Shown here: in pieces, positions 12,483-55,877 of the stretch | Position numbering within the stretch: the first letter of the stretch is position 1 | Layout of the letters: each line of letters opens with the position of its first letter | DNA from: an uncultured Clostridia bacterium | Lineage (GTDB): Bacteria; Bacillota; Clostridia; Christensenellales; UBA1242 | Direction: 5' to 3' | Assembly (NCBI GenBank): GCA_934746715.1 | Contig: CAKVFI010000003.1 | Coordinates: forward strand, 164,741-228,740 | DNA: 64,000 nucleotides | Program-made: the position numbers and the translations under genes | The notes under the pieces: generated by a model | The model's database searches: none | What the model was told of the DNA's origin: nothing | The model's input: only the letters and a program-made list of their open reading frames with translations

Positions 12483-12522
12483 TTGCGTTTAACTTTTTGT
12501 TTTGGTATAATTAATAAGATTA
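12483..12522 (+). promoter_or_regulatory. promoter abutting the M50-like gene (very short leader)
   Basis: TTGCGT, 17 nt spacer, TGgTATAAT (12506-12511). The ATG is 11 nt downstream with no SD. Confidence 0.6.
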
Positions 12523-13203
12523 ATGCTTATTTCAATTTTATTAAACAACAATTTAGACCCATTGGATGCAGTAATACAATTTTTGATGATTGTGTTTGTT
12601 TTTACATTTTCACTTTCACTGCGAGAGTTTTTTCGTGCTTTTGCTGCTTACAAGATGGGGGACGCCACTGCAAAATCAATGGGAATGATGACAATCAATC
12701 CAATAAAACATATCGACCCAGCAGGCTTTTTGTTTTTTGTGTTGCTTGGTGTAGGCTGGTCAAAACCTGTGCCAATCAATCCAACAAATTTCAAAAACTA
12801 CCGCAAAGGCATTAGGTGGGTGTCCGCTGCCGGCGTGTTGGTCAACTTTGTTTTTGGTTTGCTTGCGTCAATCGTTTATTTGGTGTTTAATCGCACACTG
12901 GGTTGTCCAAACGAAGCAATGGGTTACTTTTACTTGCTGCTTCAAATAATCATGCAAATCAACAGTTTTTTGGTGCTTTTCAACATCTTGCCAATTTATC
13001 CACTTGCAGGATTTGACTTTATAACAACGTTTATGAAGTCTAACAACAAATTTATTTACTTCAACTACAAAAATGGCGTAAAAATACTTTATGGGATATT
13101 GATTGTTAGTGTTGTGTTTGAGTTGCTGTTTGGCTTTGATTTGTTTGCTATTTATTTAAATTTATTATATAATTATATATATTTACCAATCGCTTTAATT
13201 TAG
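12523..13203 (+). CDS. site-2 protease (peptidase M50) family membrane protein lacking all three metal ligands
   Basis: LSLREFFRAFAAYKMGDATAK...INPIKHIDP...NILPIYPLAGFD is collinear with the M50B layout HExxH...NxxPxxPLDG, but reads RExxR and PLAG. Confidence 0.8.
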   Translation: MLISILLNNNLDPLDAVIQFLMIVFVFTFSLSLREFFRAFAAYKMGDATAKSMGMMTINPIKHIDPAGFLFFVLLGVGWSKPVPINPTNFKNYRKGIRWVSAAGVLVNFVFGLLASIVYLVFNRTLGCPNEAMGYFYLLLQIIMQINSFLVLFNILPIYPLAGFDFITTFMKSNNKFIYFNYKNGVKILYGILIVSVVFELLFGFDLFAIYLNLLYNYIYLPIALI

Positions 13204-13210
13204 GGGTGCT

Positions 13211-13960
13211 ATGGAAGAAATGGAAGAACTGACTGACGAATTTGGCAGTCATTTAACATTTAAGTTGGAAGGCTTTGAAGGGCCTTTGGATCTTTTGCTG
13301 CACCTTATCAAAGAAAACAACATGTCCATTCAAACCATTCGCATAAGTGAAATCACAGACCAGTACTTGAAATACATGGACGACATCTCAAGTTTGGATA
13401 TGGACGAAGCCGTTGCGTTTTTGGACATGACAAGCAGATTGTTGGAACTTAAATCAAAAGCATTGCTTCCTGTTGAACAAACCGATGAAGAAGATGACGA
13501 GCAAGATAGTTTGCTTAAACTTCAAATGGACTTGCAAGAATATCAATTGTTTAAAGGCGTTGGGGCAGAATTGCAACAAATTGAAAATGTTAACAGGTTT
13601 TACAAGCAGCCAGACAAAATGGCAAACGACACTCGCATTGTGTTCAACGATTTTAATTTGGACAAATTGCTTGATGCTTTTGCATTCATTTTGATGAAAA
13701 CAAAGGATAGAGAAAACCCAGAAGAAAAGCAAATTAAACGTGATCGCTGGACGGTTGCGGATAAAATTGCCTTTTTAACTGGTGTTTTGAAGGAAAACAA
13801 AGAAATCAACTTTTTTAGTTTGTTTGACGACACATATTCAAAAGGCGAAATTATTACAACATTCTTGGCAATTTTGGATATGCTTAAATTTCAAAAAATT
13901 GTTGTTGTTCAAACGGACAGATATCAAGATATTTTAATAAAAGCAAGGGAGGAACAATGA
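13211..13960 (+). CDS. scpA: segregation and condensation protein A
   Basis: FEGPLDLLLHLIKENNMSIQTIRISEITDQYL is the ScpA kleisin N-terminus. Followed by scpB. Confidence 0.9.
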   Translation: MEEMEELTDEFGSHLTFKLEGFEGPLDLLLHLIKENNMSIQTIRISEITDQYLKYMDDISSLDMDEAVAFLDMTSRLLELKSKALLPVEQTDEEDDEQDSLLKLQMDLQEYQLFKGVGAELQQIENVNRFYKQPDKMANDTRIVFNDFNLDKLLDAFAFILMKTKDRENPEEKQIKRDRWTVADKIAFLTGVLKENKEINFFSLFDDTYSKGEIITTFLAILDMLKFQKIVVVQTDRYQDILIKAREEQ

Positions 13961-14625
13961 AGTACGAAGACATAGCACGCGTTATTGAAGGCGTTTTGTT
14001 TGTTGCTGGTGACGGCGTTGAAATAGATGAATTTAAGCGCAAGTTTGACATTAACGACAAAGAATTTAACAAATGCCTTGACTTGCTTAAAGCAAAGTAT
14101 AACGAAAAAAGCGGAATAAATATTATTACATACAAAAGCAAAGTTCAATTGTGTTCAAACCCACAAATTGTTGAAGACATCAGTGAAATATTAAACCCTA
14201 TCCGTGAGCGCTCATTAACAAAAGCTGCGTTGGACACTGTTGCCATTATTGCCTACAAACAGCCTATAACTAGAATGGAAATTGAAGGCATTCGCCAAGT
14301 TAAAAACTGCGATTATGCCATTGATTTGTTGCTTTCAAACAACCTTATTGAAGTTGTTGGAAGAAAGGATGCAGTGGGCAAACCATTGCTTTATGGCACA
14401 ACAGATGCATTTTTGAAGCGCTTTGGTTTGTCAAGCATAGAAGCATTGCCAAACTACAACGAGTTGCTTGACCGTATCCGCGTCATTCACAGTGATGGCG
14501 ATTCATTATATCGCGAGTTCTCAATTCCAGATGAAGAACCAGAAAATTCCGCCACCGAAAAGGCAGAACCACCAACAAAAACTGCCAGTGAACAGCAAGA
14601 TGAAACACCAGCACAAGCAAGTTAA
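13957..14625 (+). CDS. scpB: segregation and condensation protein B
   Basis: IEGVLFVAGDGV, LSKAALDTVAIIAYKQPITRMEIEGIRQV, GKPLLYGTTDAFLKRFGL. Confidence 0.92.
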   Translation: MKYEDIARVIEGVLFVAGDGVEIDEFKRKFDINDKEFNKCLDLLKAKYNEKSGINIITYKSKVQLCSNPQIVEDISEILNPIRERSLTKAALDTVAIIAYKQPITRMEIEGIRQVKNCDYAIDLLLSNNLIEVVGRKDAVGKPLLYGTTDAFLKRFGLSSIEALPNYNELLDRIRVIHSDGDSLYREFSIPDEEPENSATEKAEPPTKTASEQQDETPAQAS

Positions 14626-14659
14626 AGTATAAAATCAAATTAAAGTAAGATACTACCAT

Positions 14660-15247
14660 ATGGGGTATCTTATTTTTTTGTTTGTTTGTCTTTTAACATT
14701 AATGTTGATTGTGTTTCCGTTTCTCATCAGTTATGAAATTAAAATCAATCTGTTGCGCCTTAAAGGTGTGTTTACGTTAATCATATTTGGCAAAATAAAA
14801 TTGCAGTTTAAATTGCGCGTAAAAAATGGCTATATTTACATTTATCACAACCGCAAAGAAAAGCGTTATAAATTAACTGACAAAAATTTTAATGTTATAT
14901 TTTTTGTCAATTTAATCAAACAGTTATATTTCCGCCACCAACTTTGCGTTTTGGATATATTTTCTAACTTTGGCTATATGAATGATGCTTGCGTTTCTGC
15001 AGTGGGCGTGGGGTATATAGACGTGATTAGCAAGTGTGTTTTAAGCAAAATCAAAAACAATAAAAAATCTGCACATATTTTTGTGAATGTTGATGCAAAA
15101 TATAATCAAGATATATGCTCAATTAGAGTTAAAAGTTCGGTGCGTGTGTCAATTTGGGACTTGCTGTTTTCGATTGTCTACACACTGCTTAACACATGGA
15201 GATATTATGAAAAACACCCAAACAATAAACTTAAACAAAAACAATAA
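14660..15247 (+). CDS. DUF2953/YtfI-like membrane protein (tentative)
   Basis: N-terminal TM and a K-rich beta-type sequence. Lies immediately upstream of, and overlapping, the ytfJ-like gene as in sporeformers. Confidence 0.5.
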   Translation: MGYLIFLFVCLLTLMLIVFPFLISYEIKINLLRLKGVFTLIIFGKIKLQFKLRVKNGYIYIYHNRKEKRYKLTDKNFNVIFFVNLIKQLYFRHQLCVLDIFSNFGYMNDACVSAVGVGYIDVISKCVLSKIKNNKKSAHIFVNVDAKYNQDICSIRVKSSVRVSIWDLLFSIVYTLLNTWRYYEKHPNNKLKQKQ

Positions 15248-15605
15248 AATAGAATCATTAATTGATGTTTCATTGGACAAAGTGCGTTCACTTATTGATG
15301 TTAACTGCGTGGTTGGCAATGCAATTTCCATGCCAGACAATTCAGTTATTATTCCAATTTCAAAAGTGAGTGTCGGCTTTGTTTCTGGTGGTGGAGAGTA
15401 TAGCGATTTAAATGCAAAACGCAATTCAGCGGATTTTCCAATGGCTGGCGGCACTGGTGGTGGCTTTACTGTTACACCAATTGGATTTTTTGTGGTTAAC
15501 AACAACAAATTTAAAATCATTCATGCAGACAAATCAACTGCGTATTTAGGGTTAATCAAAAATGCCACAGAAGTGCTTAAAAAATTTGTGGGGAACATGA
15601 AATGA
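15207..15605 (+). CDS. ytfJ: GerW/YtfJ-family sporulation protein
   Basis: I take the start at ATG 15207, behind GGAG, rather than the track start at 15087. IIPISKVSVGFVSGGGEY...FPMAGGTGGGFTVTPIGFFVV. Confidence 0.85.
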   Translation: MKNTQTINLNKNNKIESLIDVSLDKVRSLIDVNCVVGNAISMPDNSVIIPISKVSVGFVSGGGEYSDLNAKRNSADFPMAGGTGGGFTVTPIGFFVVNNNKFKIIHADKSTAYLGLIKNATEVLKKFVGNMK

Positions 15606-16798
15606 AGCAGTTAAACAGTCAATTTAAACAATTCAAAACAACAACAGCAATTACAAGGTTATTAGCCTTGTGTTTTGCTTTAATCAGCTCAATTTGTTGC
15701 TTTAATTTTGCAAGCATAAAACAGCTTTCAAATCCTATTTTTGCCGCCAGCAGTTCAGCAAAGGCGATGTGTGTGCTGGATAAGGACAGCAAACGTGTAT
15801 TATATTGCAAAAACCAAAACCAGAGTTTGCCAATGGCATCCACAACAAAAGTGGTTACAGCAATCACAGTGCTTGAAAATTGCAAAGATTTAAATCAAGT
15901 GATAACAATCAACAAACACGCAGTTGGTGTGGAAGGCACATCAATTTATTTGAGACAAGACGAGCATATTTCAGTTATGGATTTATTGTATGGTTTAATG
16001 CTTCGCAGTGGCAATGACAGTGCAACATCGTTGGCTTATCATGTTGGTGGTAGTGTTGACGGGTTTGCTTCTCTCATGAACAATTTTGCAAAAAAAGTTG
16101 GGGCAAAAAATTCTCATTTTGCAAACCCACATGGGTTAGATAATCCAAATCATTACACAACTGCATATGATTTGGCTCTTATCACTTGCCACGCATTAAA
16201 CAATCCAACTTTTAAGCAAATTGTTTCAACAAAAAATCACATTATTCCAGCAACAAACAAATCAGACAAACGCTATTTGACAAACAAAAACAGATTGCTT
16301 TCAAGCTTAACTGGCTGTTGTGGTGTTAAAACTGGCTTTACATCAAAAGCGGGGAGATGTTTGGTTAGTGCATGCGAAAGGGACAACAGAACAACCGTTT
16401 GTGTTGTGCTTAATTGTGGGCCTATGTTTGAAGAAAGTGTTGATTTGATTGAATCAAGCTTTGAAGATTATTCAAACAAAAAAGTTGTTGACAAAAACAA
16501 GGAAATTTACAATGAATATTTGCTTGATAACAAGGCTGGACGCCTATATTTGTACGCAGAAAAAGATGTTTACTGCCCAATAAAACAAGGGGAAGAAAAC
16601 AAAATACAAATTAAATATTCCGTTAAACTAGACGACGCTCATCAAGGCAGCGAAGTTGGGAAAATTGATGTTTTTTTGGATAATCAGTTGATTAATTCTG
16701 CAAAATTATATACAATGAATAAGATTGAAAAGTTTTTGGACAACAAAACTCTTCAAATAAAAGAAATACTATGGGAAGAAGAAATAAATGAGAATTAA
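15602..16798 (+). CDS. dacB: D-alanyl-D-alanine carboxypeptidase (serine type)
   Basis: SxxK (ASTTK), SGN (RSGND) and KTG (KTGFT) motifs. The scpAB ... rluB neighbourhood matches B. subtilis dacB, but no spmAB follows. Confidence 0.82.
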   Translation: MKQLNSQFKQFKTTTAITRLLALCFALISSICCFNFASIKQLSNPIFAASSSAKAMCVLDKDSKRVLYCKNQNQSLPMASTTKVVTAITVLENCKDLNQVITINKHAVGVEGTSIYLRQDEHISVMDLLYGLMLRSGNDSATSLAYHVGGSVDGFASLMNNFAKKVGAKNSHFANPHGLDNPNHYTTAYDLALITCHALNNPTFKQIVSTKNHIIPATNKSDKRYLTNKNRLLSSLTGCCGVKTGFTSKAGRCLVSACERDNRTTVCVVLNCGPMFEESVDLIESSFEDYSNKKVVDKNKEIYNEYLLDNKAGRLYLYAEKDVYCPIKQGEENKIQIKYSVKLDDAHQGSEVGKIDVFLDNQLINSAKLYTMNKIEKFLDNKTLQIKEILWEEEINEN

Positions 16799-17569: not shown

Positions 17570-17605
17570 TTGCAAAAATCTATCAATTATGCTACAATAT
17601 CGCCA
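17570..17605 (+). promoter_or_regulatory. promoter fused to the start codon (leaderless geometry)
   Basis: TTGCAA (17570-17575), 17 nt spacer, TACAAT (17593-17598), 7 nt, ATG 17606. No SD. The track's TTG start is the -35 hexamer. Confidence 0.7.
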
Positions 17606-18829
17606 ATGGAAACAAATTTTGATGTTGTTGTTATCGGTGGCGGAGCATCGGGCATGATGTCCGCAATTTTTGCATCTCGCAAAGGCAAAAAAACTTTAAT
17701 TCTTGACCATAATGAAAAGCTGGGCAAAAAGTTATACATTACAGGCAAAGGTAAGTGCAATTTAACTAACAACAGCAGTGTGGAAACACATTTGGAAAAC
17801 ATTATGCACAACAGCAAATTTATGTATTCTGCTCTCAACGCGTTCACTCCGCAAGATACTATGGCGTTTTTTGAGGAAAACGGATTAAAATTGCGCACAG
17901 AACGTGGCAAAAGGGTTTTTCCAGAAAGTGATAAGTCAAGTGACGTTATCAAAACATTGGAAAAATGCTTGCATAGATATGAAGTTAAAATTTCATTAAA
18001 CAACGAAATTTTGTCAGTTCAAAAACAAGGAGATTTGTTCCATATTAAGTGTGATAATGGTGTTGAATACACATCATATAGTTTAATTTTAGCAACTGGT
18101 GGTTTATCGTATGCTGGCACAGGCGCTTCAGATTTTGGCTGCAAAATTGCCACTCAATTTGGTCATAAACTTATTAAAGCAAAAAGTGCACTATGCCCAA
18201 TTGTTTTGTATGACGATGTTAGTTCTCTTAATGGTTTAAGTTTAAAAAATGTAAGTTTGGAACTGGAAGTGAACGGCAAAAAGTTTAAGGAATTTGGCGA
18301 AATGATGTTCACTTTTAACTCAATCACTGGTCCAATTGCGCTGACGCTCTCCAGCAAAATCAATGAATATCAAATCAACAAAACAAAACTGATTTTAGAT
18401 TTAAAACCTGCTTTAACCATAACTCAACTTGACCAAAAACTTAAACGAGAAAGTCTTGAGTATGCAAAAACAGATTTAAAAAATTATCTTTACACTGTTT
18501 TGCCACATTCATTTGTTGACTATTTTATGCACCACACCAAATTAACCAACAAAAAAATGGCAGATTTAAGCAAAACAGAAAGAAACACAATTATTTCCAA
18601 CCTTAAACAATTTGACTTTTTAATTAAATCATTAGATAATATTAATGTTAGTATAGTAACCGCAGGTGGGGTTGATGTTAAACAAATCAATTCAAAAACA
18701 TGCGAAAGCAAACTTGTTCCAAACCTTTATATTGTTGGGGAACTGCTTGATGTGGATGCGCTAACTGGCGGCTTTAATTTGCAAATTGCTTGGTCAACAG
18801 GTTTTGTTGCTGGCAATTCAGTGAGATAA
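17606..18829 (+). CDS. NAD(P)/FAD-dependent oxidoreductase, HI0933/BaiN family
   Basis: FDVVVIGGGASGMM dinucleotide fold, KLYITGKGKCNLTN, C-terminal GELLDVDALTGGFNLQIAWSTG. Confidence 0.85.
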   Translation: METNFDVVVIGGGASGMMSAIFASRKGKKTLILDHNEKLGKKLYITGKGKCNLTNNSSVETHLENIMHNSKFMYSALNAFTPQDTMAFFEENGLKLRTERGKRVFPESDKSSDVIKTLEKCLHRYEVKISLNNEILSVQKQGDLFHIKCDNGVEYTSYSLILATGGLSYAGTGASDFGCKIATQFGHKLIKAKSALCPIVLYDDVSSLNGLSLKNVSLELEVNGKKFKEFGEMMFTFNSITGPIALTLSSKINEYQINKTKLILDLKPALTITQLDQKLKRESLEYAKTDLKNYLYTVLPHSFVDYFMHHTKLTNKKMADLSKTERNTIISNLKQFDFLIKSLDNINVSIVTAGGVDVKQINSKTCESKLVPNLYIVGELLDVDALTGGFNLQIAWSTGFVAGNSVR

Positions 18830-18839
18830 AAGGACAATT

Positions 18840-19439
18840 ATGTTATTTTGGTTTTTATTTGTTTTGGCGTTTATTCCTTGTTTGATTTTGTTTCCAATCA
18901 AAAAGGTTGGCAAAAAGAACTTAAAGGAATTAAAAGGCAAAAACTATATTATTTCATGCAATCATATGTCAAATAACGACGCACCAATGTTGGACATTAG
19001 GTTTTGCAGAAAACATTATTTTTTGGCAAAAAAAGAGTTGTTTAACGGCAAAATTAAGTCTGCTTTCATTAAAAGCCTTGGTGGCGTTAAAGTTGACAGG
19101 CAAAAGGTTGAACCAAGTTCTATTAAAGAAGTTTTGCGCTTAATTGGCAAAAACAAGCATATTTGCATTTTTCCACAGGGCACAAGGGCAAAAACTCCAT
19201 ATATTGAAGATGGTTCAGCAAAAGAAGGTGTTGCAATGTTTTCCATTCGCACCAACACGCCAGTTGTGCCAATGATGTACAACAAAAAAATAAAGCCTTT
19301 TAGAAGAGTTAAATTGTATATTGGCAAGCCAATTTACCCAGACGAAACAAGAAAAGGTGACAAAACATATTTGGCAGAATTTGCTGATTTAATCGTCAGC
19401 AAAATGAATGCCTTGCTTGAAGGAGAAAATAAACAATGA
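18840..19439 (+). CDS. plsC: 1-acyl-sn-glycerol-3-phosphate acyltransferase
   Basis: HxxxxD motif NHMSNND, FPQGTR and an N-terminal TM. Confidence 0.85.
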   Translation: MLFWFLFVLAFIPCLILFPIKKVGKKNLKELKGKNYIISCNHMSNNDAPMLDIRFCRKHYFLAKKELFNGKIKSAFIKSLGGVKVDRQKVEPSSIKEVLRLIGKNKHICIFPQGTRAKTPYIEDGSAKEGVAMFSIRTNTPVVPMMYNKKIKPFRRVKLYIGKPIYPDETRKGDKTYLAEFADLIVSKMNALLEGENKQ

Positions 19440-20443
19440 AAATGAAAGATTTTAATATTAGCATGACACAATACAATCGCGGGGACATCATCACTGGCAC
19501 AATTGTTATGATAGGCGAAAAGGAAGTTGTTGTTGCCATCGGTGGGCTTAAGGAAGGAGTTTTTCCACGTGAAGAACTTGAACCAAACTTTAAAATTGGC
19601 GATGCTGTTTTGGTTATGGTTACTGGCAAAATTGATGACAAAGGTTGCTTGATTGTTAATCACACAGGCGTAAACAAAGCCATCGAGGACAAGGAAAAGT
19701 TAAAGGCGCTTAAAGTTGGCAGCGAATTTAGTTTTGTTGCCTCTGCAATCAACACAGCAGGTATTTTGGGCGAATTTATGGGTTTTCGCGTGTTTTTGCC
19801 ATTCAGCCAATGCGCTCCACAAGATTTTATGAATAAAGATAGTTTGGTAAATCGTGAAATTTCAGCGATTGTTATTGAACTTAACAATATAAAAAAATCA
19901 ATTGTTTGCAGCACAAAACTTTTAACAAACACCGAAGTTCAACCTGTTGAAATTGGCGAAACCATTGCCGGCACAGTGATTAAATTGGAAGATAAATATG
20001 CTGTTGTTCTTTTGGAAAATGGGGCAAAAGCAAAACTTTCAATTTCTGACGCAAGTTACGAGCACATCAGCAGTTTGAAAGATGTTGTTGAAGAAAATCA
20101 AAAATATGATTTTAAAATTTTGGATGCAAACACAGATTTTTCAAGAATAACAGTGGGACTTAAACAATTAAAACAAGACCCACGCGATCAAGCGTTTAAT
20201 GAATTAAAGATTGGAGATGAAGTTGAAGGCGTAGTTGTCAAAATTTTGCCAGTTGGGGCTGTTATCAAACTTGACAACGGCTTTACAGCAATGGCAGTTA
20301 CCAAAGACAACACTGACAAATCAAATGTTGCAACTCATTATTTGTACAAACTTAATTCTCGTGTAAAAGGTTATATTTCACATCTCAACGCGGAAAGGCA
20401 CAAAATTAATATAATAACCAACAAAAAAGTAGAAAATATTTAA
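19436..20443 (+). CDS. S1 RNA-binding domain protein (ribosomal protein S1-like, about 4 S1 repeats)
   Basis: Repeated G(D/E)xxxGxV...V.L S1 modules (GDIITGTIVMI, GETIAGTVIKL, GDEVEGVVVKI). ATGA overlap with plsC. Confidence 0.8.
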   Translation: MKMKDFNISMTQYNRGDIITGTIVMIGEKEVVVAIGGLKEGVFPREELEPNFKIGDAVLVMVTGKIDDKGCLIVNHTGVNKAIEDKEKLKALKVGSEFSFVASAINTAGILGEFMGFRVFLPFSQCAPQDFMNKDSLVNREISAIVIELNNIKKSIVCSTKLLTNTEVQPVEIGETIAGTVIKLEDKYAVVLLENGAKAKLSISDASYEHISSLKDVVEENQKYDFKILDANTDFSRITVGLKQLKQDPRDQAFNELKIGDEVEGVVVKILPVGAVIKLDNGFTAMAVTKDNTDKSNVATHYLYKLNSRVKGYISHLNAERHKINIITNKKVENI

Positions 20444-20530: not shown

Positions 20531-20568
20531 TTGCAAAAGCAACAAACAAAGTGTAAAATTGCCTTATA
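20531..20568 (+). promoter_or_regulatory. promoter fused to the start codon (leaderless geometry)
   Basis: TTGCAA, 17 nt spacer, TAAAAT (20554-20559), 9 nt, ATG 20569. No SD. Confidence 0.6.
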
Positions 20569-21708
20569 ATGAAGTTTAAGGCAATTTTTTATCCACTGAT
20601 TTGTGTGGCTATTGTTTTTGCAATTGCCAGTTTTTTGGTGGTTAAAAACAACATAGACAAATCACACTCACAAAAACATCAAACACAACTGGTTCAACAA
20701 ATTAATGATGAAAATTTGCCACCAAAAACAGATAACAACACTCAGCACAAAAACTCTGGGGAAACAACCATAAATGATTCTGACAAAAATCAAAGAATCA
20801 TTTCAGACAACGATGATAAGGACAACACAACAGATAGCAATAAATTAGAAAACCCATTTAACGAAGATAATGCAGATGACGATGATAAAGTTCTGCCAAC
20901 CGAACCAAAGCAAGAGTTTGTAAAAGATTTAAAATTGAATTGCAACTCAACAATTGAAATGGCGATTAACGAAACTGTGGTTTTAAAGGATTATTTAATA
21001 GTTGAACCTAAAAAATTTTTTAACGCCACAAAAATCAAAATTACAAATGGCAACGAGCCAACAAATGACTTAACTTTTAAAAATGGAACAATCTCTGCAA
21101 CAAAAATTGGGTGTTACAAAATTAGTTTTAGCATCAACGTAGGCAAAACAGAAATTAAAACAGAAGTTTTAACAATTATTGTAAAAGAAAAGTGCTCATA
21201 CATCGAATTAAAAACAAACAAACTTGAACTTGGCAAAACTTATAGCATTGATGATATAATTAACAACAAAACAGCAGGCGAAGTCAGCCTTAATTTTGAC
21301 AAAAAATATCTACGTTTTAAAAACAACAAATTAACAACATTAAAGGCGGGCAGCACAATTATTGAAATTTGTGTAACAAATGAAAATATGTTTTGTTATT
21401 TTGACTTTGACATTATTATCTTTAAACCAACTGTTTGCAATATTGTGTTGCCAGATTATGCCAACAAAAACAAAATTGAAACCAACAAAAATATGCTGGG
21501 CATAAATTATCAAATAATGTATGGCGACGCAGAATATGTTGACCAAACAATACTTGCAGAATTAAGTGATGAGTCAGTTGCAAGAATAATGTTTTCAGAT
21601 GCTCCAATGATTTACATCAAAAAACTTTCAAAGGGCAGTGTAACCTTAAAATTAACAAGTGTGGCAGATCCAACAATCACAAAAACGATAGTGATTGTGT
21701 TTAACTAA
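20569..21708 (+). CDS. hypothetical membrane-anchored surface protein (N-terminal TM, D/N/K-rich linker, beta-rich Ig-like C-terminal part)
   Basis: TM segment FYPLICVAIVFAIASFLVV, a low-complexity acidic region, then repeated beta-strand-like segments. No catalytic motif seen. Confidence 0.55.
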   Translation: MKFKAIFYPLICVAIVFAIASFLVVKNNIDKSHSQKHQTQLVQQINDENLPPKTDNNTQHKNSGETTINDSDKNQRIISDNDDKDNTTDSNKLENPFNEDNADDDDKVLPTEPKQEFVKDLKLNCNSTIEMAINETVVLKDYLIVEPKKFFNATKIKITNGNEPTNDLTFKNGTISATKIGCYKISFSINVGKTEIKTEVLTIIVKEKCSYIELKTNKLELGKTYSIDDIINNKTAGEVSLNFDKKYLRFKNNKLTTLKAGSTIIEICVTNENMFCYFDFDIIIFKPTVCNIVLPDYANKNKIETNKNMLGINYQIMYGDAEYVDQTILAELSDESVARIMFSDAPMIYIKKLSKGSVTLKLTSVADPTITKTIVIVFN

Positions 21709-21772: not shown

Positions 21773-22469
21773 TAAAGTGATATTCAGCCATTGCAACACT
21801 GATTGCCAAGTTGAAGGAATCAACATCTTTTGATTGCTTAATCTTGATTTTTGTGCCCATGTTGGCAACTTTGTCTGGCAAACCTGTTGCTTCGTTGCCA
21901 AAAACAAGGGTAAATGGCTTTTCGTTGTCAACTTGTGTTTGTTGCAAATATTGTTTTCCGTCAAGGCAAAAAGTAAAAATTTGGTTGTTTTTAAACTTTG
22001 CAACATAACTTTCAAAATCGTCAAACAATTCAATATTCAACTTAAAAATTGCCCCCATTGACGCACGCACCACTTTTGGATTGAATATATCTGCACAAGG
22101 GGTAACAAGTGCTATATTTTTAATGCCTAGTCCAAGTGATGTTCTAAAAATAGTGCCCAAATTGCCCATGTCGCTTGGGTTTACCAAAGCAAGATGATTG
22201 CCAGCATTAAGTGTTTGAATATATTTGTTGAACTCACACACAATATGCACATTTTCCTTGCCGGACAAACTTTCCACAAACTTTGTGCGTTCAAGCAATT
22301 CAATATTATTCTTTTTGCAAAAATCAAAAAGAGCAACAACATCTTCTGTCATTTTAATGTTTTTTGTGTAATATACGCCAACAACATGGTTTGGCATGGT
22401 GTTAACAATCTCGTATGTTGCAAACATACCGATTGCAAAACTTGTTTTGTCATTTTTATCATATTTCAT
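21759..22469 (-). CDS. TrmH/SpoU-family RNA 2'-O-methyltransferase
   Basis: NPSDMGNLGTIFRTSLGLG and LVFGNEATGLP motifs. I take the start at ATG 22469 (MKYDKND) rather than the track's TTG at 22487. Confidence 0.85.
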   Translation of the reverse strand: MKYDKNDKTSFAIGMFATYEIVNTMPNHVVGVYYTKNIKMTEDVVALFDFCKKNNIELLERTKFVESLSGKENVHIVCEFNKYIQTLNAGNHLALVNPSDMGNLGTIFRTSLGLGIKNIALVTPCADIFNPKVVRASMGAIFKLNIELFDDFESYVAKFKNNQIFTFCLDGKQYLQQTQVDNEKPFTLVFGNEATGLPDKVANMGTKIKIKQSKDVDSFNLAISVAMAEYHFTKNA

Positions 22470-22504
22470 AAAATGATAATACACCAAATCAAAATATTTT
22501 TCAA
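22470..22504 (-). promoter_or_regulatory. promoter fused to the start codon (leaderless geometry)
   Basis: Minus strand: TTGAAA (22504-22499), 17 nt spacer, TATTAT (22481-22476), 6 nt, ATG 22469. Confidence 0.7.
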
Positions 22505-22850: not shown

Positions 22851-22885
22851 TTGCGATAATTTTGCAGTTTTGCTAAAATAAAAAT
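22851..22885 (+). promoter_or_regulatory. promoter fused to the start codon (leaderless geometry)
   Basis: TTGCGA, 17 nt spacer, TAAAAT (22874-22879), 6 nt, ATG 22886. No SD. Confidence 0.6.
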
Positions 22886-24223
22886 ATGCTAATTAAAATT
22901 ATATTAATTTTATTGCTGATGTTTGTGTTGATCACAATGTCTGCAGCAATGATTATTTTTGAGCGTGATAAACCACGCTCAATTGTTTTGTGGTTGGCAT
23001 TGTTTGTTTGCACATCTCTTGTTGGTGGGGCAATATATTTAACATCAAAAGTTATTTATTACAAAAAGCGCAATTCTCTCAATGTTAAAGATAAAGAAGA
23101 CCAAATTTATGAGTCACTTGTTAGCAAACAACTTTTGCCACAAAACAACAAATTTAATGATGATTACTTTATGTTTAACCAATTGGGTTACAATGCAAAT
23201 GTTTATCAAAACAATTGTTGTGAATTTTTTCATACCTATGCCAAATTTAAAGAAAACTTGTTGCGTGAAATTGCTGGGGCAAAGGACTACATAATTTTTG
23301 AAGTTACTCAACTTAAAGTACGCGATTTGGAGTGGATTAAAGAGCCATTAACAAAAAAATTGGCTGCTGGTGTTGTTGTTAAAATTATTTACGACAAAAA
23401 CATCAACAAAAAGATTAAAAAAGAACTTATTGCCGCAGGAGCAAAGGTTTACAGATTCAACAAATTGCAAACATTGGACAATAAATTTGTTAACAGGCGA
23501 AATGTTGTGATTGTTGACGGAACAACTGCATACATTGGCAAAATTGATTTAAAACCTTGCCAGGAAAAAGAAAAGTGCATTGTTTCCAATATGATTGTTA
23601 AATTTAAGGGCGAAATTGTGCAAGCAATTGATTTGTCGGCTCACAAAGATGTTGTTTTTGCCAGTGGCAAATATATGGAATACAAAGCACCCAAATTTGA
23701 GCAAACAAAAGCACAAGTTCAAATGCAATATATAAGTAATTCAACTGCTCAAGGTTTGGACTTGGCACTTATCAAAGCAATTTGCATGGCAAAAGAGTCA
23801 ATTCAAATTCAAGTTGAAGAATTTATTCCAACTGAAAGTATTATGTCGCTTTTAAAATTCGCGCTTAATTCAAACATCGATGTTAGATTGATGATACCAA
23901 TGAAGTCAGAAGATAGCAGCCGCTATTATGCTTCTCGTGCATATGCAAAAGAACTTGCCTTATATGGTGCAAATTGCTATCTTTATGACGGATATATTAG
24001 GTTTAATTCAATTGTCATAGACTCCCAATACGGGCTATATGGTTCATTTACACTCAATCAAGGCTTGATAAACGAAAGTTTGCAAGATGTTGTTATAATC
24101 AACGATGAAAAGGCAATAACGCACTTAAACAGAACATTTGATGTTAGCGTGGACAATAGTTATCGCATTAATGATGCAAAATTTTTGTTGTTAAGGGAAA
24201 AATTCTTTAAAAACTTTGTGTAA
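22886..24223 (+). CDS. cardiolipin synthase-like (two PLD domains) membrane protein with degenerate HKD motifs
   Basis: Cls-type N-terminus (two TM, IIFERDKPRSIVLWL). The two PLD repeats read NRRNVVIVDG and IRFNSIVIDS, i.e. RxNxxxxD instead of HxKxxxxD. Confidence 0.75.
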   Translation: MLIKIILILLLMFVLITMSAAMIIFERDKPRSIVLWLALFVCTSLVGGAIYLTSKVIYYKKRNSLNVKDKEDQIYESLVSKQLLPQNNKFNDDYFMFNQLGYNANVYQNNCCEFFHTYAKFKENLLREIAGAKDYIIFEVTQLKVRDLEWIKEPLTKKLAAGVVVKIIYDKNINKKIKKELIAAGAKVYRFNKLQTLDNKFVNRRNVVIVDGTTAYIGKIDLKPCQEKEKCIVSNMIVKFKGEIVQAIDLSAHKDVVFASGKYMEYKAPKFEQTKAQVQMQYISNSTAQGLDLALIKAICMAKESIQIQVEEFIPTESIMSLLKFALNSNIDVRLMIPMKSEDSSRYYASRAYAKELALYGANCYLYDGYIRFNSIVIDSQYGLYGSFTLNQGLINESLQDVVIINDEKAITHLNRTFDVSVDNSYRINDAKFLLLREKFFKNFV

Positions 24224-26752: not shown

Positions 26753-26827
26753 GCTAGTGTGGCTCAATGGCAGAGCAGCTGACTTGTAATCAGCAGGTTG
26801 ATGGTTCGACTCCATTCACTAGCTCCA
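26753..26827 (+). tRNA. tRNA-Thr (TGT)
   Basis: GCTAGTG...CACTAGC-T-CCA acceptor. Anticodon loop CTTGTAA. Confidence 0.92.
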
Positions 26828-26856
26828 AAAACTTCCAATAATGGGAGTTTTTTTGT
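26828..26856 (+). terminator. terminator of the tRNA cluster
   Basis: AACTTCC-aataat-GGGAGTT followed by T7. Confidence 0.8.
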
Positions 26857-26894: not shown

Positions 26895-26929
26895 TTGATT
26901 ATTGAAAAAAAATCTGCTACACTAAAGTT
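26895..26929 (+). promoter_or_regulatory. promoter fused to the start codon (leaderless geometry)
   Basis: TTGATT (26895-26900), 17 nt spacer, TACACT (26918-26923), 6 nt, ATG 26930. No SD. Confidence 0.65.
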
Positions 26930-27961
26930 ATGAGTAAATGTGTTAGATGTGGTGGGGTTTTGTATTTTGACCCCAAAAGAAAAAGTAATGTGTGCGAAAG
27001 TTGTGGTGCAGCAGACCCTGTTAAATATAATTATGTTTTTAACAAAAAAGATTTTGACAAAGCACAACAAATGGAATCAGACCCTTTAGCAAAGGAATTG
27101 CAAACAGTTAAATGCAAATCGTGTGGTGCAAACATTTTGGTTAACAAGCAGGAAATGGTCAGCAAATGCATGTATTGTGGAAGTGAAACAATTTCGGCAT
27201 CAAGCAAAAAAACTATGATGTATATTGATTCAATTGTGCCATTCACTTTTGGCAAGGCTGATGCAGTTAACAAGTTTAAAAGGGCAGTAGCCACTCGTTT
27301 TTATGCCAACAAAAAGGTGTTTAAGGGTGTTTCATCACAAGATGTAACTGGTTTGTATGTTAATACTTTTGTTTTTGATTTTAACACAAATTCACATTAC
27401 AACGGCACGTTGTCCTACCAAAAATCAGTTAAAGATAGTGAAGGCAACACGCATTACGAAACAGTAACAAAAAATGTTTCTGGCAGTTTGGACAAGCTTT
27501 TTAAAAACCTTACTATTGAAGCAAATCCAAATTTAAACCAACGCGAATTATTGCAAATTATGCCTTTTGAATACACATCGGCAGTTGATTTCCAACAAGA
27601 TTTTATTAATGGCTATGTGATTGAATATCAAGACAAATTGTTTAACGAGTGTGTTGCAAATGCTGAACGTGTTGTTAAACGTGAGTTAGAGCGTGAAATT
27701 TTGAATAGATATGGCTGCGACACAATTGTTAGTTTGGATATAGACACAGAATATTTGGATAGGAAATATAATTACTGTCTGTTGCCTGTTTATATGTTTA
27801 ACAAAGAATATAAAGGGCAAAGATACAAAGCACTTATGAATGGGCAATCTGGCAAAGTTGGAGAATTGCCAACAGACAAACTGCGTGTGTTCTTAACCAT
27901 ATTATTTGCAGCAGTGATTGTGGTTGGAATAATTTTTTTGGTTATATTTTTGTCAAAATAA
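26930..27961 (+). CDS. hypothetical double zinc-ribbon protein with C-terminal TM anchor
   Basis: CVRCGG..CESCG and CKSCGA..CMYCGS pairs, a domain of about 230 aa with no motif I recognise, and the C-terminal TM LTILFAAVIVVGIIFLVIFL. Confidence 0.65.
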   Translation: MSKCVRCGGVLYFDPKRKSNVCESCGAADPVKYNYVFNKKDFDKAQQMESDPLAKELQTVKCKSCGANILVNKQEMVSKCMYCGSETISASSKKTMMYIDSIVPFTFGKADAVNKFKRAVATRFYANKKVFKGVSSQDVTGLYVNTFVFDFNTNSHYNGTLSYQKSVKDSEGNTHYETVTKNVSGSLDKLFKNLTIEANPNLNQRELLQIMPFEYTSAVDFQQDFINGYVIEYQDKLFNECVANAERVVKRELEREILNRYGCDTIVSLDIDTEYLDRKYNYCLLPVYMFNKEYKGQRYKALMNGQSGKVGELPTDKLRVFLTILFAAVIVVGIIFLVIFLSK

Positions 27962-33908: not shown

Positions 33909-33944
33909 TTGTTTTAAATTTAAACATGTGATATAATATCCAGT
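33909..33944 (+). promoter_or_regulatory. promoter fused to the start codon (leaderless geometry)
   Basis: TTGTTT (33909-33914), 17 nt spacer, TGaTATAAT (33932-33937), 7 nt, ATG 33945. No SD. Confidence 0.7.
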
Positions 33945-35051
33945 ATGTTATATTTCGACAACGCAGCCACAACAAAAATAAGCAAATCATCACTTGAAGC
34001 ATATGTTAAAGCAAGTGAATTGTTTTTTAATCCAAGTGCGCTATATGCAAATGCAGGAGAAGCAAAAAAGCAATTGGAAAATGCAAGGGCATATTTTGTT
34101 AAAAAATTTAATGGAGCACCTAAATCAACATTTATATTTACAGGTTCTGCCACAGAAGCAAACAATTCAGTTTTAAATGCACATATCACTCGTGCAGACA
34201 AAAAGTATATATTTAGTGCAGGGGAACATAGTTCAATATATGAAACTGCTAAAGCATATAAGGAAAAGGGATTTAATATTGTTTTTGTCCCACTAAACAA
34301 AGATGGTAGTGTTGATACAAATCAATTGTTTAAAGAGATAGATAATTCAACAGTGTTGGTTTCAGTAATACATGTTAGCAATGAAACTGGTGCAGTTAAT
34401 GATATCAAGGCAATAACAAAAAGAATTAAAGAAATTAATCCAAATGTATTTGTCCATTCAGACGGAGTGCAAGCAGTTGGCAAGTTGAACATTAATTTAG
34501 CAGATTTAGGCGTGGATTACTACACTATGAGTGCCCACAAGATAAATGGACCTAAAGGCGTGGCAGCGTTGTATATAAGCAAGCCTAATAGATTTAAACC
34601 ATTCATTTGTGGTGGCGGGCAAGAAATGAATTTGCGCTCTGGAACAGAAAATCTGCCGGGCATTTTGGCGTTTAAGCAAGCAGTTGAAGATTTAGTGTTG
34701 CATAACTATGCAGAATATAAGCAAGCAATTTTGCAAAACATCAAACAAGACCATATTTTGGTTTCAACCAACAAAAGCGTTGATAATATTATATCAATAT
34801 GTTTTAAAGGCGTTAGGGGAGAAACGATTTTGCATATGCTGGAATCTCTTGGATTTTTGATTGGCACTGGCAGTGCGTGTAACAGCAAAGCAGGGTTAAA
34901 CAGGGTGCTTGCTCCTATTGTGCCAAAAGATTACATAGAAGGAGCAATAAGGTTGTCTTTCGGCGATGATATTACGCTTAAAGACTGCTTAAATTTGGGT
35001 TTGGCCATTGACAATGCGGTGGCGGAATATAAAGCAAGGATAAAAAGATGA
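33945..35051 (+). CDS. cysteine desulfurase (NifS/IscS class), partner of ThiI
   Basis: HVSNETG, PLP lysine in SAHKINGPKG, catalytic Cys in GSACNS. Confidence 0.9.
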   Translation: MLYFDNAATTKISKSSLEAYVKASELFFNPSALYANAGEAKKQLENARAYFVKKFNGAPKSTFIFTGSATEANNSVLNAHITRADKKYIFSAGEHSSIYETAKAYKEKGFNIVFVPLNKDGSVDTNQLFKEIDNSTVLVSVIHVSNETGAVNDIKAITKRIKEINPNVFVHSDGVQAVGKLNINLADLGVDYYTMSAHKINGPKGVAALYISKPNRFKPFICGGGQEMNLRSGTENLPGILAFKQAVEDLVLHNYAEYKQAILQNIKQDHILVSTNKSVDNIISICFKGVRGETILHMLESLGFLIGTGSACNSKAGLNRVLAPIVPKDYIEGAIRLSFGDDITLKDCLNLGLAIDNAVAEYKARIKR

Positions 35052-38482: not shown

Positions 38483-38518
38483 TTTACAACTTTTGCATTT
38501 TGTGGTATCATATTAACA
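38483..38518 (+). promoter_or_regulatory. promoter fused to the start codon (leaderless geometry)
   Basis: TTTACA (38483-38488), 17 nt spacer, TGgTATCAT (38506-38511), 7 nt, ATG 38519. Confidence 0.65.
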
Positions 38519-38800
38519 ATGAAAGAAGTTCATTATTATCAAGCATTAATGAAAATGGGGCATATGGGTGCTGGTAATCATTTGCAAGTTAACATTTTTA
38601 TTAAATCTCACAATTTAATTTCGGCAATAACAAAGGCACAAAAAATTCCAGCAATCAAGCACAATGAAATGCCAATTTCAATCAAAGAAATTAGCTACGA
38701 AGAATATTTAATAGGTATTGAAAAAGGCGAATATTATACAAGAATGAGCGCAATTTCAAATGCCAAGGAGAAGCATGAAAAAAGTTACAATTTATACTGA
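38519..38800 (+). CDS. hypothetical 93-aa protein overlapping the rnhA start
   Basis: ATG 38519 lies directly behind a promoter. MKEVHYYQALMKMGHMGAGNH... has no domain I recognise. Its 3' end overlaps rnhA by 26 nt. Confidence 0.5.
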   Translation: MKEVHYYQALMKMGHMGAGNHLQVNIFIKSHNLISAITKAQKIPAIKHNEMPISIKEISYEEYLIGIEKGEYYTRMSAISNAKEKHEKSYNLY

Positions 38801-51921: not shown

Positions 51922-51940
51922 AATTTCTCCTTTTAAATGA

Positions 51941-54517
51941 CTATTTTGCAAGTTCGATTAATCTAACAAGTGTGTCAAACGCTACGAGTGGTGTTAAACT
52001 ATTTGGGTCAATTGATTTGAGTGTGTCAACAATTTCACTTTCCTTTTGTGCTTCGTTTGTAACTTTTGTTGACTCAAACTCTTTAATTAACTCTTTTGCC
52101 CTATTAATTATTTCTTTTGGCAAACCTGCCAAACTTGCAACTTCAATGCCGTAACTTTTTGTTGCACTTCCACGCATTATTTTGCGCATAAACACAAGTT
52201 GCCCGCCAATTTCTTTAATTGATATGCAAAAGTTTTTCACGCCGTCGTAAAGACCTTCCAATTGCATCAATTCATGATAATGAGTGGCAAACAAAGTTTT
52301 TGCATTAAGGTGTTTTGAAAGATATTCAACAACAGCCCAAGCAATTGACAAGCCGTCAAAAGTAGATGTTCCCCTACCCACTTCATCCAAAATAATCAAA
52401 CTATTGTTTGTTGCATAATGCAAGATATTTGCAACTTCAATCATTTCAACCATGAATGTTGATTGGCCAATGGACAAGTCATCACTTGCACCGATACGCG
52501 TAAAAATACGGTCAACAATGCAAATATCTGCTTTCCTTGCTGGCACAAAACTGCCAATATGTGCCATGTAAGTGATAAGTGCCACTTGGCGCATATATGT
52601 TGATTTACCAGCCATATTAGGACCAGTTAAAATCATGGTGCGTTGGTCTGATTCGTTCAATCTGCAGTCGTTGGCAATAAAATCTGTGTCGCGTTGCATT
52701 TTTTCAACAACTGGGTGTCGCCCCGCCACGATATCAATATCTTTCCCATTTGTGATGTTTGGACGATGATAATCGTTTGTGATTGCAACTGTTGCCAGTG
52801 AGTAAATGCAATCTATTTGAGCAATAACACGAGCAATTTGTTGCAAAACAGAAGCATTTGCAAGTATTTGTTCCTTAACTTGAGCAAAAATTGCTTCTTC
52901 CATGTTTAAAGCAGTTTCATGTGAAGAAAAAACTTGTTCCTCAAACTGTTTTAATTCTTCTGTAATGTAGCGTTCGCCATTTGCTGTTGTTTGCTTTCTA
53001 ACATATCTAAAAGGCACTTGGTCAGCATATTGTTTGCCAACTTCAATGTAATAGCCAAACACTCGATTGTGCCCTATCCTTAAAGTTTTTATGCCTGTGG
53101 TTTCGCGCTCTTGCGCTTCCATTTGAGAAATATAATTTTCTGCCTCATCTCTAATTGATTTGATGTGGTCAAGGTTGGCATTAAAACCGGGTTTGATATA
53201 ATTGCCATTTTTAAACAAAAGTGGCGGTTCATCAACAATTGTTGCATTAATCATGTCTGCAATTTCATGCACATCAACAAGTTGATTTGCCAAATTAAGC
53301 AAATCTTGATTGTTGTTGCTTAAAAGCACTTTTTTTATCATTGGCACTTGATAAAGTGATGTTTTTAACGCAACGCAATCTTTTGGCGAAAAACTGCCAT
53401 AGCCCACCTTGCCAACAATACGCTCAATGTCTTGCACTTGTTGCAAAGTTATCTTTAAATTGGCACGCAAAACGGTGTCGTTAACCAAACTTTCAACCAT
53501 ATTCAAGCGTTTGTCAATTTCTTGCTTGTTTTGAAGTGGTTGCCTAACCCAATTGCGCAACATACGAGAGCCAATATTTGTGCAAGTGTTGTCCAACACC
53601 CAAAGCAATGTGCCTTTCCTTTCGCCATCTTTTGTTTGTTCAATTTCCAAATTTCGCCTTGTGTTTGTGTCCAAGTACATAAATTCTTGGTCAAAAATCT
53701 TTTTGGGAAAATTTAAATGTTTTAAATCTCTTTTTTGTGTTTCTTGGAAATATGCAAGCAAAGCTCCAATTGCTTTAACACTTGGCTTGGAGTCAATGTC
53801 AAAGCCAGCCAAAGATTTTATGTTGTATTGTGTTAAAATTTGTTTTTCTGCATCAGCATAGTTAAATGCCCAATCAAAGTACTCTGAAAAACGATAACCA
53901 TCACGCAAAGAACAAACCAAATCCTTGCTTAATGTCATCATAAGTTTGTTGCATATGATTTCACTAGGCATAATCCTAACAATTTGGTCATTAATATATT
54001 CCGCGATGTTTGCGCCAGAATATTCTGCAACTTTAATTTCGCCAGTTGACAAATCACTATAAGCGTAAGATATTGTGCTCTTTTCTGCATATATACACAT
54101 TATGTACGAATTTTTACGCTCGTTTAGCATAGAACTTTCAACAACTGTACCGGGAGTTATAATGCGCACAATTTCACGCTGAACAAGCCCATTTCTTATT
54201 TCATCAGTTTGCTCACAAATGGCAACTTTGTAGCCACGTTCAATCAAGCGTTGAGCATACGATTCATATGCGTGAAAAGGGATGCCACACATAGGTGCGC
54301 GCTCACCAACGCCACAATCTTTGCCTGTTAGGGTCAAATCCAAAATTCTGCTGCCAACAACAGCATCGTCTAAAAACAACTCATAAAAGTCGCCCAAACG
54401 ATAAAATATAATGCAATCTTCGTTATTTTCTTTAATTGAAAGGTATTGTTTGATAACTGGAGATAACTTTTTGTTGTTTGAATTAAATATTTCTTTATTT
54501 ACGTAACTTTCAATCAT
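51941..54517 (-). CDS. mutS: DNA mismatch repair protein MutS
   Basis: PVIKQYLSIKE..FYRLGDFYELF, Walker A GPNMAGKST, DEVGRGTSTFDG. Confidence 0.97.
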   Translation of the reverse strand: MIESYVNKEIFNSNNKKLSPVIKQYLSIKENNEDCIIFYRLGDFYELFLDDAVVGSRILDLTLTGKDCGVGERAPMCGIPFHAYESYAQRLIERGYKVAICEQTDEIRNGLVQREIVRIITPGTVVESSMLNERKNSYIMCIYAEKSTISYAYSDLSTGEIKVAEYSGANIAEYINDQIVRIMPSEIICNKLMMTLSKDLVCSLRDGYRFSEYFDWAFNYADAEKQILTQYNIKSLAGFDIDSKPSVKAIGALLAYFQETQKRDLKHLNFPKKIFDQEFMYLDTNTRRNLEIEQTKDGERKGTLLWVLDNTCTNIGSRMLRNWVRQPLQNKQEIDKRLNMVESLVNDTVLRANLKITLQQVQDIERIVGKVGYGSFSPKDCVALKTSLYQVPMIKKVLLSNNNQDLLNLANQLVDVHEIADMINATIVDEPPLLFKNGNYIKPGFNANLDHIKSIRDEAENYISQMEAQERETTGIKTLRIGHNRVFGYYIEVGKQYADQVPFRYVRKQTTANGERYITEELKQFEEQVFSSHETALNMEEAIFAQVKEQILANASVLQQIARVIAQIDCIYSLATVAITNDYHRPNITNGKDIDIVAGRHPVVEKMQRDTDFIANDCRLNESDQRTMILTGPNMAGKSTYMRQVALITYMAHIGSFVPARKADICIVDRIFTRIGASDDLSIGQSTFMVEMIEVANILHYATNNSLIILDEVGRGTSTFDGLSIAWAVVEYLSKHLNAKTLFATHYHELMQLEGLYDGVKNFCISIKEIGGQLVFMRKIMRGSATKSYGIEVASLAGLPKEIINRAKELIKEFESTKVTNEAQKESEIVDTLKSIDPNSLTPLVAFDTLVRLIELAK

Positions 54518-55841
54518 CTACAACCACCCCAGACAATTTATGGTTTCTTATCCCTTCAACTCTAACGTTTGCAAAATAGTTTTCGTTGTTAAATTTGTAA
54601 CTTGGCAAATAAATTTCTCTTCCGCCGTCTGTCAACCCCATCGCCACGCCATTGTGTGTTTTGATGAGGCAATTATAGGTTTTGTTTATTGTTTTAACCA
54701 TCAAATCTTTTTGAATAAGCCTTTGTTTTTTAAGCAAGTTGTTCACTCTTCTGTTTTTTGTTTCTTCATCAATTTGGTCAACAAAACTTGCAGCTGGTGT
54801 TCCAGCCCTTGGAGAATACATAAACGCAAACACTTGGTCATATTTAACCTTTTTGAGTAATTTTAAGGTTTGATTGTAGTCCTTTTCTGTTTCACCAGGG
54901 AAGCCAACAATAATATCAGTTGAAAGTGAAATATTTGGCATTGCATGTTTAACTTTTTTGATAATTTTGTAATAGTGCTTGATGTCGTAATGCCTATTCA
55001 TCCTTTTAAGCACTTTTGTGCTGCCAGATTGCACTGGCAAATGAAGTGCCTTTGCAACTTTATCTTGCTCTTTCATCACCTTAATCAAATCCAAATCAAA
55101 ATCCATTGGGTGTGAGGTCATAAACTTGATTTTAAAGTCCCCTTCAATTTTGCAAAGTTCATTAAGCAAAGTTGCAAAATTGGTTTGAGGAGTTAAATCC
55201 TTGCCATAAGAGTTAACATTTTGCCCTAACAATGTTATATACTTGTAATTTTGCTTTTGAACAAGGTTTTTAACTTCATTGTAAATGTCAGCCATAGGTC
55301 TGCTTGTTTCACGCCCACGAACATATGGCACAATGCAATAAGTGCAAAATTTGTTGCAACCATAAATGATGTTAACATAGGCATTAACTTTGTCATCACG
55401 CACGCAAGTTTCAGTTTCCATGCCATTGATTGGTGCATCAACAATTTCAACAATGCGTTTGCGGTCAGCAAGCAAGCGTTTTAAATATTCTCCCAGCATA
55501 TTGATGTTGTGTGTGCCAATAACAATATCAACAAAAGTTAAGCGCTTTTTAAAGTCATATTTGCCATTTTTTTGTTGAGGCATGCAACCACAAACAACAA
55601 TAATTCTGTTTGGGTCTTGTTGTTTCCACTTTTTTAATGCAGCGATGTTGCTATATGCTTTGTCTTCTGCCCCTTCTCTAATGCAGCAGGTGTTAAAAAG
55701 AACCATTGATGCTTGATTAACATCATCGGTTTCCGCCATTCCAAAAGTGGACAAAATGCCACGAAGTTTTTCACTTTCGTGCACGTTCATTTGACAACCA
55801 TATGTTTCGATATGGTAAAATTTTCCATTTAATTCTTTCAT
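54510..55841 (-). CDS. miaB: tRNA-2-methylthio-N6-dimethylallyladenosine synthase MiaB
   Basis: YGCQMN, radical-SAM CNKFCTYC, TRAM C-terminus. I take the start at ATG 55841 (MKELNGKFY), because the track's TTG at 55877 coincides with the -35 hexamer. Confidence 0.94.
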   Translation of the reverse strand: MKELNGKFYHIETYGCQMNVHESEKLRGILSTFGMAETDDVNQASMVLFNTCCIREGAEDKAYSNIAALKKWKQQDPNRIIVVCGCMPQQKNGKYDFKKRLTFVDIVIGTHNINMLGEYLKRLLADRKRIVEIVDAPINGMETETCVRDDKVNAYVNIIYGCNKFCTYCIVPYVRGRETSRPMADIYNEVKNLVQKQNYKYITLLGQNVNSYGKDLTPQTNFATLLNELCKIEGDFKIKFMTSHPMDFDLDLIKVMKEQDKVAKALHLPVQSGSTKVLKRMNRHYDIKHYYKIIKKVKHAMPNISLSTDIIVGFPGETEKDYNQTLKLLKKVKYDQVFAFMYSPRAGTPAASFVDQIDEETKNRRVNNLLKKQRLIQKDLMVKTINKTYNCLIKTHNGVAMGLTDGGREIYLPSYKFNNENYFANVRVEGIRNHKLSGVVVDD

Positions 55842-55877
55842 ATCATACATTATAAACAAAATCGGCAATATTTTCAA
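55842..55877 (-). promoter_or_regulatory. promoter fused to the start codon (leaderless geometry)
   Basis: Minus strand: TTGAAA (55877-55872), 17 nt spacer, TATAAT (55854-55849), 7 nt, ATG 55841. No SD. Confidence 0.7.

Follow-up and report, generated by a model that had tools for sequence, protein, structure and literature searches.

How a gene is translated when its promoter runs almost into its start codon is the question raised by a 64,000-nucleotide (nt) stretch of the genome of an uncultured Clostridia bacterium (G000:C3:164741-228740; the whole stretch is called the window below). At nine genes of the window, a promoter was found to end only 6-11 nt before an ATG. It is likely that these promoters are placed so that the mRNA starts at or near the ATG, with neither a leader nor a Shine-Dalgarno (SD) sequence, and that the transcripts would be translated by the leaderless route. 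The geometry, the statistics and the conservation were read directly from the genomes, and from them we infer the point of transcription start and the mode of translation. The genome consists of 986,685 base pairs (bp) in three contigs with a GC content of 34%, and TGA is a stop codon.

A sequence-only reading of the window had described nine such promoter-ATG fusions, with their positions and spacings and without an SD, and all nine were confirmed when the 70 nt 5′ of each ATG were read and the exact coordinates computed. Each site carried a -35 hexamer of the TTGnnn type (TTTACA at 38483), a 17-bp spacer and a TAnnnT -10 hexamer, with a gap of 6-11 nt to the ATG, and six of the nine had the canonical TGn extension of the -10. 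No GGAG-type word was found before the ATG at any of the nine sites in the 70 nt read upstream. The sites are as follows, each written as the -35, spacer length, -10 with any TGn extension, gap and ATG.

12483..12525, plus strand: TTGCGT-17-TGgTATAAT-11-ATG (12523), at the gene of a 226-residue membrane-like protein; near-leaderless, with a predicted leader of 4-5 nt.
17570..17608, plus strand: TTGCAA-17-TGcTACAAT-7-ATG (17606), at the gene of a TIGR00275 flavin adenine dinucleotide (FAD) enzyme, head of a three-gene operon.
20531..20571, plus strand: TTGCAA-17-TAAAAT-9-ATG (20569), at the gene of a 379-residue unknown protein; predicted leader of 2-3 nt.
22467..22504, minus strand: TTGAAA-17-TATTAT-6-ATG (22469), at the gene of an RlmB/TrmH-like methyltransferase; the -35 is 22504-22499 and the -10 is 22481-22476.
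22851..22888, plus strand: TTGCGA-17-TGcTAAAAT-6-ATG (22886), at a cardiolipin-synthase-like gene (cls), an operon head.
26895..26932, plus strand: TTGATT-17-TGcTACACT-6-ATG (26930), at the gene of a 343-residue zinc-ribbon protein.
33909..33947, plus strand: TTGTTT-17-TGaTATAAT-7-ATG (33945), at the gene of a NifS/IscS-type cysteine desulfurase (nifS); the promoter fills the 39-nt gap to the upstream gene.
38483..38521, plus strand: TTTACA-17-TGgTATCAT-7-ATG (38519), at a 93-residue open reading frame (ORF) that overlaps the SD-led start of the next gene.
55839..55877, minus strand: TTGAAA-17-TATAAT-7-ATG (55841), at miaB, head of a long minus-strand operon.

The promoters would belong to the housekeeping sigma factor (sigma-70/SigA type), most of them in the extended -10 form. 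With a gap of 6-7 nt, RNA polymerase is expected to start at the A of the ATG, and the mRNAs would therefore have no leader and no SD, while a gap of 9-11 nt would place the start 2-5 nt upstream. On a leaderless mRNA, a ribosome carrying the initiator tRNA would bind the 5′-terminal AUG directly. The downstream genes of the operons, as well as the other transcription units, would use ordinary SD pairing with a 16S rRNA that keeps its CCUCC tail.

The genome-wide scan of -10-to-ATG distances that the sequence-only reading had proposed gave a sharp peak. Genes were called with a simple codon-usage ORF picker (832 genes, covering 88% of the genome), promoters were scored by the matches to both hexamers plus a bonus for the TG (maximum 14; strong promoters, at least 11), and distances were taken from each candidate ATG in the vicinity of an ORF start. 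Strong promoters numbered 41 at 6 nt, 15 at 7 nt and 4 at 8 nt, with 0-3 at each distance from 9 to 15 nt, which served as controls and held about 1.6 per genome each. None of the 60 promoter-ATG pairs at 6-8 nt in the genome had an SD word, and a broad hump followed at 16-30 nt, where nearly every case had one. From the control distances, about 0.14 sites were predicted for the 43-kb stretch that holds the nine sites, against 5 observed with the threshold at 11 and 7 with the threshold at 10. A scan that used no gene calls, for TATAAT followed by an ATG opening an ORF of at least 80 residues, found 29 cases at 6 nt and 12 at 7 nt over a background of about 4. The two-peaked distance histogram was also obtained for three other species of the genus, one of which yielded 16 sites with a 6-nt gap over 120 kb of sequence. 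In four genomes of the genus, 20-40% of the strong promoters no more than 40 nt from a candidate ATG sat at 6-7 nt.

Positions that had played no part in the selection were then informative, with the sites picked solely for a TAnnnT that lay a set distance before the ATG. A TTG at the -35 position of a 17-bp spacer was present in 42% of the sites at 6 nt and 30% of those at 7 nt, compared with 7-8% at 9, 12 and 15 nt, and a TG at -15/-14 was present in 45-46% at 6-7 nt compared with 3-12% at the control distances, where the gap to the ATG held GGAG instead. The base at -1 was a pyrimidine in all 51 sites at 6 nt (46 T, 5 C), compared with 65% for SD-led genes, which fits the start-site preference for a pyrimidine at -1 and a purine at +1 that was found to be universal by Cappable-seq (PMC4782308). 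Of the 63 genes whose promoter lay 5-9 nt away, 61 had ATG as the start codon. The second codon was AAA in 36% of leaderless-type genes and 20% of strong-SD genes, and the GC content of the first 40 nt was 0.267 in the former and 0.306 in the latter; these differences, like that in 5′ folding given below, are suggestive only.

In total, 83 genes were of the leaderless type at a score of at least 10 and about 60 at a score of at least 11, which corresponds to 7-10% of the approximately 830 genes. Among the heads of transcription units, defined by the crude rule that the upstream gene has the opposite orientation or is separated by 40 nt or more, 78 of 585 (13%; score of at least 10) were of this type. 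The SD route was retained beside them. The earlier statement that internal operon genes are SD-led held for most but not all of the 247 internal genes, 160 of which were positive in the strict test for a 4-mer SD word. The end of the 16S rRNA reads GGATCACCTCCTTT, with the CCUCC tail and hence the anti-SD intact, and a loss of SD recognition was ruled out by this sequence. An unusual content of S1 or IF3 was also considered as a cause: infC is present in the genome, and the S1 homologue is short, as is typical of low-GC Gram-positives, but only 2 of 14 control genomes passed the S1 family cut-off, which makes this comparison uninformative. The best rpsA-like match of the genome is a short S1-domain protein of 335 residues (window 19436-20443, plus strand), whose gene is the third of the operon led by the leaderless-type FAD-enzyme gene.

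Comparison within the genus, for which 20 or more species-level genomes with sizes of 0.7-1.1 Mb are available, showed that four of the window's sites were kept in most orthologues. In miaB, 16-17 of 19 orthologues (protein identity 65-91%) retained TTGAAA-17-TATAAT at 6-10 nt from the ATG, and in two species a GTG start followed a short leader that contained GGAG. In nifS, all 19 orthologues (identity 57-76%) retained TTGnnn-16/17-TGnTAnnnT without exception, at 6-7 nt in 18 and at 9 nt in one. The geometry was kept in 15 of 17 orthologues of the FAD-enzyme gene (identity 53-81%), one of the others having a GTG at 6 nt and the most divergent species having no nearby promoter, and in about 15 of 17 orthologues of cls (identity 34-82%), where the most divergent species had a 23-nt leader containing an SD. 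The sequences of the spacer and of the 6-7 nt discriminator varied freely among the orthologues while the promoter elements and their spacing persisted, as would be expected if selection acted on the geometry of the promoter. By the same comparison, the promoter-ATG arrangement is a lineage trait, conserved gene by gene across the genus and not specific to the window. As a separate observation, a GTG stands exactly 6 nt after TGnTAnnnT in some orthologues of the FAD-enzyme gene, cls and comEC (L140, L152 and L178, in relatives of the genus), and leaderless GTG starts may be tolerated in this lineage.

Judged from these alignments, orthologues also switch between leaderless and short SD-led forms. 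The 12523 gene is the clear case of such leader turnover on the sequence evidence: four of five relatives (L167-L171) had short GGAG-containing leaders with GTG, TTG or ATG starts, and the orthologue in the closest relative (G005) had a 24-nt leader with no clear SD. Two further starts of the window belong here.

60988..61026, minus strand: TTGCAA-18-TGcTATAAT-6-ATG (60990), a near-consensus promoter within the 3′ end and last codons of comEC, at a 302-residue holA-like gene.
62540..62578, minus strand: the comEC start (62542), preceded by a degenerate TGGGAT-17-TAATAG-7-ATG; no convincing leaderless site in this genome.

The first of these had been missed in the sequence-only reading. Its holA-like label was taken from the N-terminus and the position after comEC, not from a profile; three of five relatives had a leaderless-type arrangement at this gene and the other two had an SD, and the start is most likely the ATG at 60990, the TTG at 61068 given by the ORF track probably being wrong. 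The second had been put forward as a possible tenth case and was not upheld, since in this genome its TAATAG does not end in T and no -35 accompanies it, although three of five relatives had TGnTATAAT 6-7 nt before an ATG or GTG at the homologous place. At the gene of the 379-residue unknown protein, an inverted repeat, TGCCTTA-N10-TAAGGCA (window 20560-20589, plus strand), extends across both the ATG and the predicted start of transcription. The repeat and the first 10 codons were almost identical in the G005 orthologue, the proteins overall being only about 40% identical, and from its sequence the repeat looks like an operator or a 5′ hairpin.

The density of such sites was compared across genomes with a strict 18-nt pattern, TGNTATAAT-N6-ATG, with the same pattern at N9 spacing and the pattern reversed as controls. 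This genome of about 1 Mb had 18 matches at N6, none at N9 and one for the reversed pattern, and four other genomes of the family had 9-27 per approximately 1 Mb at N6 and 2-3 at N9. Across 121 genomes of the order, 893 matches at N6 stood against 401 at N9 and 108 for the reversed pattern; 17 of 42 families were clearly enriched, and this family was by far the densest, with 18 per Mb. A further 200 genomes of the phylum, for which only the N6 count was taken, gave 718 matches, with a maximum of 13 in any genome (about 5 per Mb). Among public records, the closest one, uncultured Clostridia bacterium ERR6760067_bin.7, had 31 matches at N6, while a Christensenellaceae metagenome-assembled genome (MAG) had 7, a Lachnospiraceae MAG 3, Thermoactinomyces daqus 2 and Sporolactobacillus kofuensis 5. 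The pattern is AT-rich and sensitive to GC content; the two out-of-family genomes that were fetched have 50% and 60% GC. Within the order, families with smaller genomes had a stronger excess of promoters 6 nt before an ATG (family-level Spearman rho = -0.50, n = 42), a link that is a lead only, related genomes being non-independent and GC content confounding it.

Four other explanations of the sites were weighed. In the first, translation proceeds mainly from longer transcripts of upstream promoters, and the A/T-rich box is not a promoter but an unstructured, SD-independent landing site for ribosomes. We regard this as quite unlikely. Other phyla are known to have leadered mRNAs on which translation is initiated independently of an SD ('atypical genes', PMC3160421), the holA-like start lies inside comEC, and nifS begins only 39 nt after its upstream gene without a terminator between them, so that read-through transcripts probably exist there too. 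However, a landing site would have no need of a spacing precise to one nucleotide, of a TTG exactly 17 bp upstream, of a TG at -15/-14 or of a pyrimidine at -1. Transcripts from upstream are also opposed by the terminator-like hairpins directly upstream of two promoters (12447-12482 before the 12523 promoter and 26827-26852 before the 26930 promoter), and by the position of several sites in divergent intergenic regions, which have no upstream gene on the same strand.

A similarly small chance is given to the second explanation, in which the promoters are real but the starts are scattered or fall a few bases before the ATG, leaving leaders of 1-5 nt that are not strictly leaderless. The sites at 12523 (11 nt) and 20569 (9 nt), as well as several miaB and cls orthologues with gaps of 9-10 nt, would indeed have leaders of 2-5 nt if transcription started 7 nt after the -10. 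Most of the genome-wide signal, in contrast, falls precisely on 6-7 nt, where -1 is a pyrimidine and +1 an A, matching the usual start point and preference of the polymerase, and leaders of 1-5 nt are in any case too short for an SD, so that translation would still be of the leaderless type.

Mis-assigned start codons, with the true starts either preceded by an internal SD further downstream or located upstream, at TTG or GTG codons of the ORF track, are more doubtful still. The ORF track does give upstream TTG starts at 17570, 22487, 55877 and 61068, and the 17606 gene has in-frame ATGs with GGAG at +48 and +51, but the upstream TTGs sit inside promoters and should not be called starts in annotation. 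The sequence-only reading had taken three of these TTGs for -35 hexamers, which was correct at 17570 and 55877, whereas 22487 lies in the spacer between the -35 and the -10. Downstream, an in-frame start with an SD word within the next 150 nt was present in only 4 of the 83 leaderless-type genes (5%), below the background of 10%. The NCBIfam profiles for the TIGR00275 FAD enzyme, the RlmB/TrmH-like methyltransferase, cardiolipin synthase, the NifS/IscS desulfurase and MiaB aligned from residues 1-9 of the products, and the ATGs are therefore plausible as the true starts. Among the genus orthologues, moreover, the N-terminal residues were conserved from the proposed ATG on, and the upstream DNA was conserved at the promoter elements only.

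The weakest explanation, chance matches in DNA of 34% GC where hexamers resembling promoter elements occur often (99 in 20 kb, with 70 expected), was refuted by the distance controls, the peak at 6-7 nt standing at least 25-fold above the neighbouring distances, as well as by the single match of the reversed pattern against 18 and by the conservation among orthologues.

The leaderless reading, which the sequence-only reading had already favoured, is thus the one that the sequence features point to: the one-nucleotide precision of the spacing, the enrichment of TTG and TGn, the pyrimidine at -1, the ATG starts and the lack of an SD, together with the lack of a downstream SD-led start, the profile alignments and a geometry kept at protein identities of 45-70%. 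Several points weigh against it. Both the gene calls and the SD test were crude, and the cross-genome pattern has the GC sensitivity described above. The sites at 12523 and 20569 lie outside the genome-wide peak at 6-7 nt, and nifS has its probable read-through. The gap in 5′ mRNA folding was weak, with means over 40 nt of -2.17 kcal/mol for leaderless-type genes and -2.66 kcal/mol for strong-SD genes (p = 0.04).

The leaderless mechanism and its sequence signature are already well known. In group C of the GeneMarkS-2 classification (Mycobacterium tuberculosis, Streptomyces, Deinococcus; 10.1101/193490, PMC4633059), the -10 box likewise lies sharply 6-8 nt before the start of first genes, which have no SD, and SD-led initiation is retained for internal genes and other operons. 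In those lineages, which are high-GC Actinobacteria and Deinococcus-Thermus, the box is a bare TANNNT and the -35 is weak, whereas this genome has 34% GC, a full TTGnnn -35 and a TGn-extended -10. About 13% of the crudely defined first genes, or 20-40% of the recognisable promoters near a start, are affected here, a share of operons that equals or falls short of the 25-50% reported for group C, into which 36 of 1064 Firmicutes were placed (10.1101/193490).

In the Lactococcus/Streptococcus and Oenococcus/Leuconostoc clades and in Mycoplasma, the genomes are likewise low in GC, the box is TAtAAT, and TG peaks strongly some 10 nt upstream of the start (PMC3160421). A distance analysis of the same kind as ours led Zheng et al. 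(2011) to predict leaderless genes for 56 of the 209 Firmicutes genomes, on average 4.2% and at most 16.6% of genes, with the cases concentrated in Lactobacillales and Mycoplasma (PMC3160421); the shares ranged there over 2.4-16.6% of genes, compared with 7-10% here. That paper does not mention Clostridia, to which the present uncultured lineage of about 1 Mb belongs. The mapped Clostridia are of the same class and have the same sigma-70-type promoter consensus. In C. phytofermentans, about 4% of the intergenic start sites were leaderless-like, and such genes kept a ribosome-binding site and a second upstream start site (PMC5171806), while three solventogenic clostridia had 2-3% leaderless start sites (PMC9045289). 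The sites described here differ from these in having no SD and in being far more frequent. The earlier remark that the frequency is unusual for Firmicutes was borne out, with no genome near this density in the 200-genome phylum sample and 2-4% in mapped Clostridia; it is not unprecedented in the phylum, given what has been predicted in Lactobacillales and Mycoplasma (PMC3160421). The literature searched appears to contain no description of a Clostridia family rich in leaderless genes, and the search found nothing relevant that links leaderless mRNAs to genome reduction or to metagenome-assembled genomes.

The finding is of interest for its lineage, for the density and conservation of the sites, and because orthologues can be seen to switch between the SD-led and the leaderless form. 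For annotation, gene finders that assume an SD would mis-start approximately 7-10% of the genes in this lineage. For the biology of the class, a low-GC, SD-using lineage of Clostridia could run a sizeable leaderless regulon, contrary to what the mapped Clostridium species suggest. The gene-by-gene switches among close relatives offer a handle on how such transitions happen, and the apparent link to small genomes offers one on why they happen. That leaderless initiation was expanded independently in this family of uncultured Clostridia with genomes of about 1 Mb, up to a density higher than anywhere else in the phylum and along with genome reduction, is in our view an evenly balanced proposition; if it is true, the lineage would be a natural system for studying the turnover of translation-initiation modes inside the Firmicutes.

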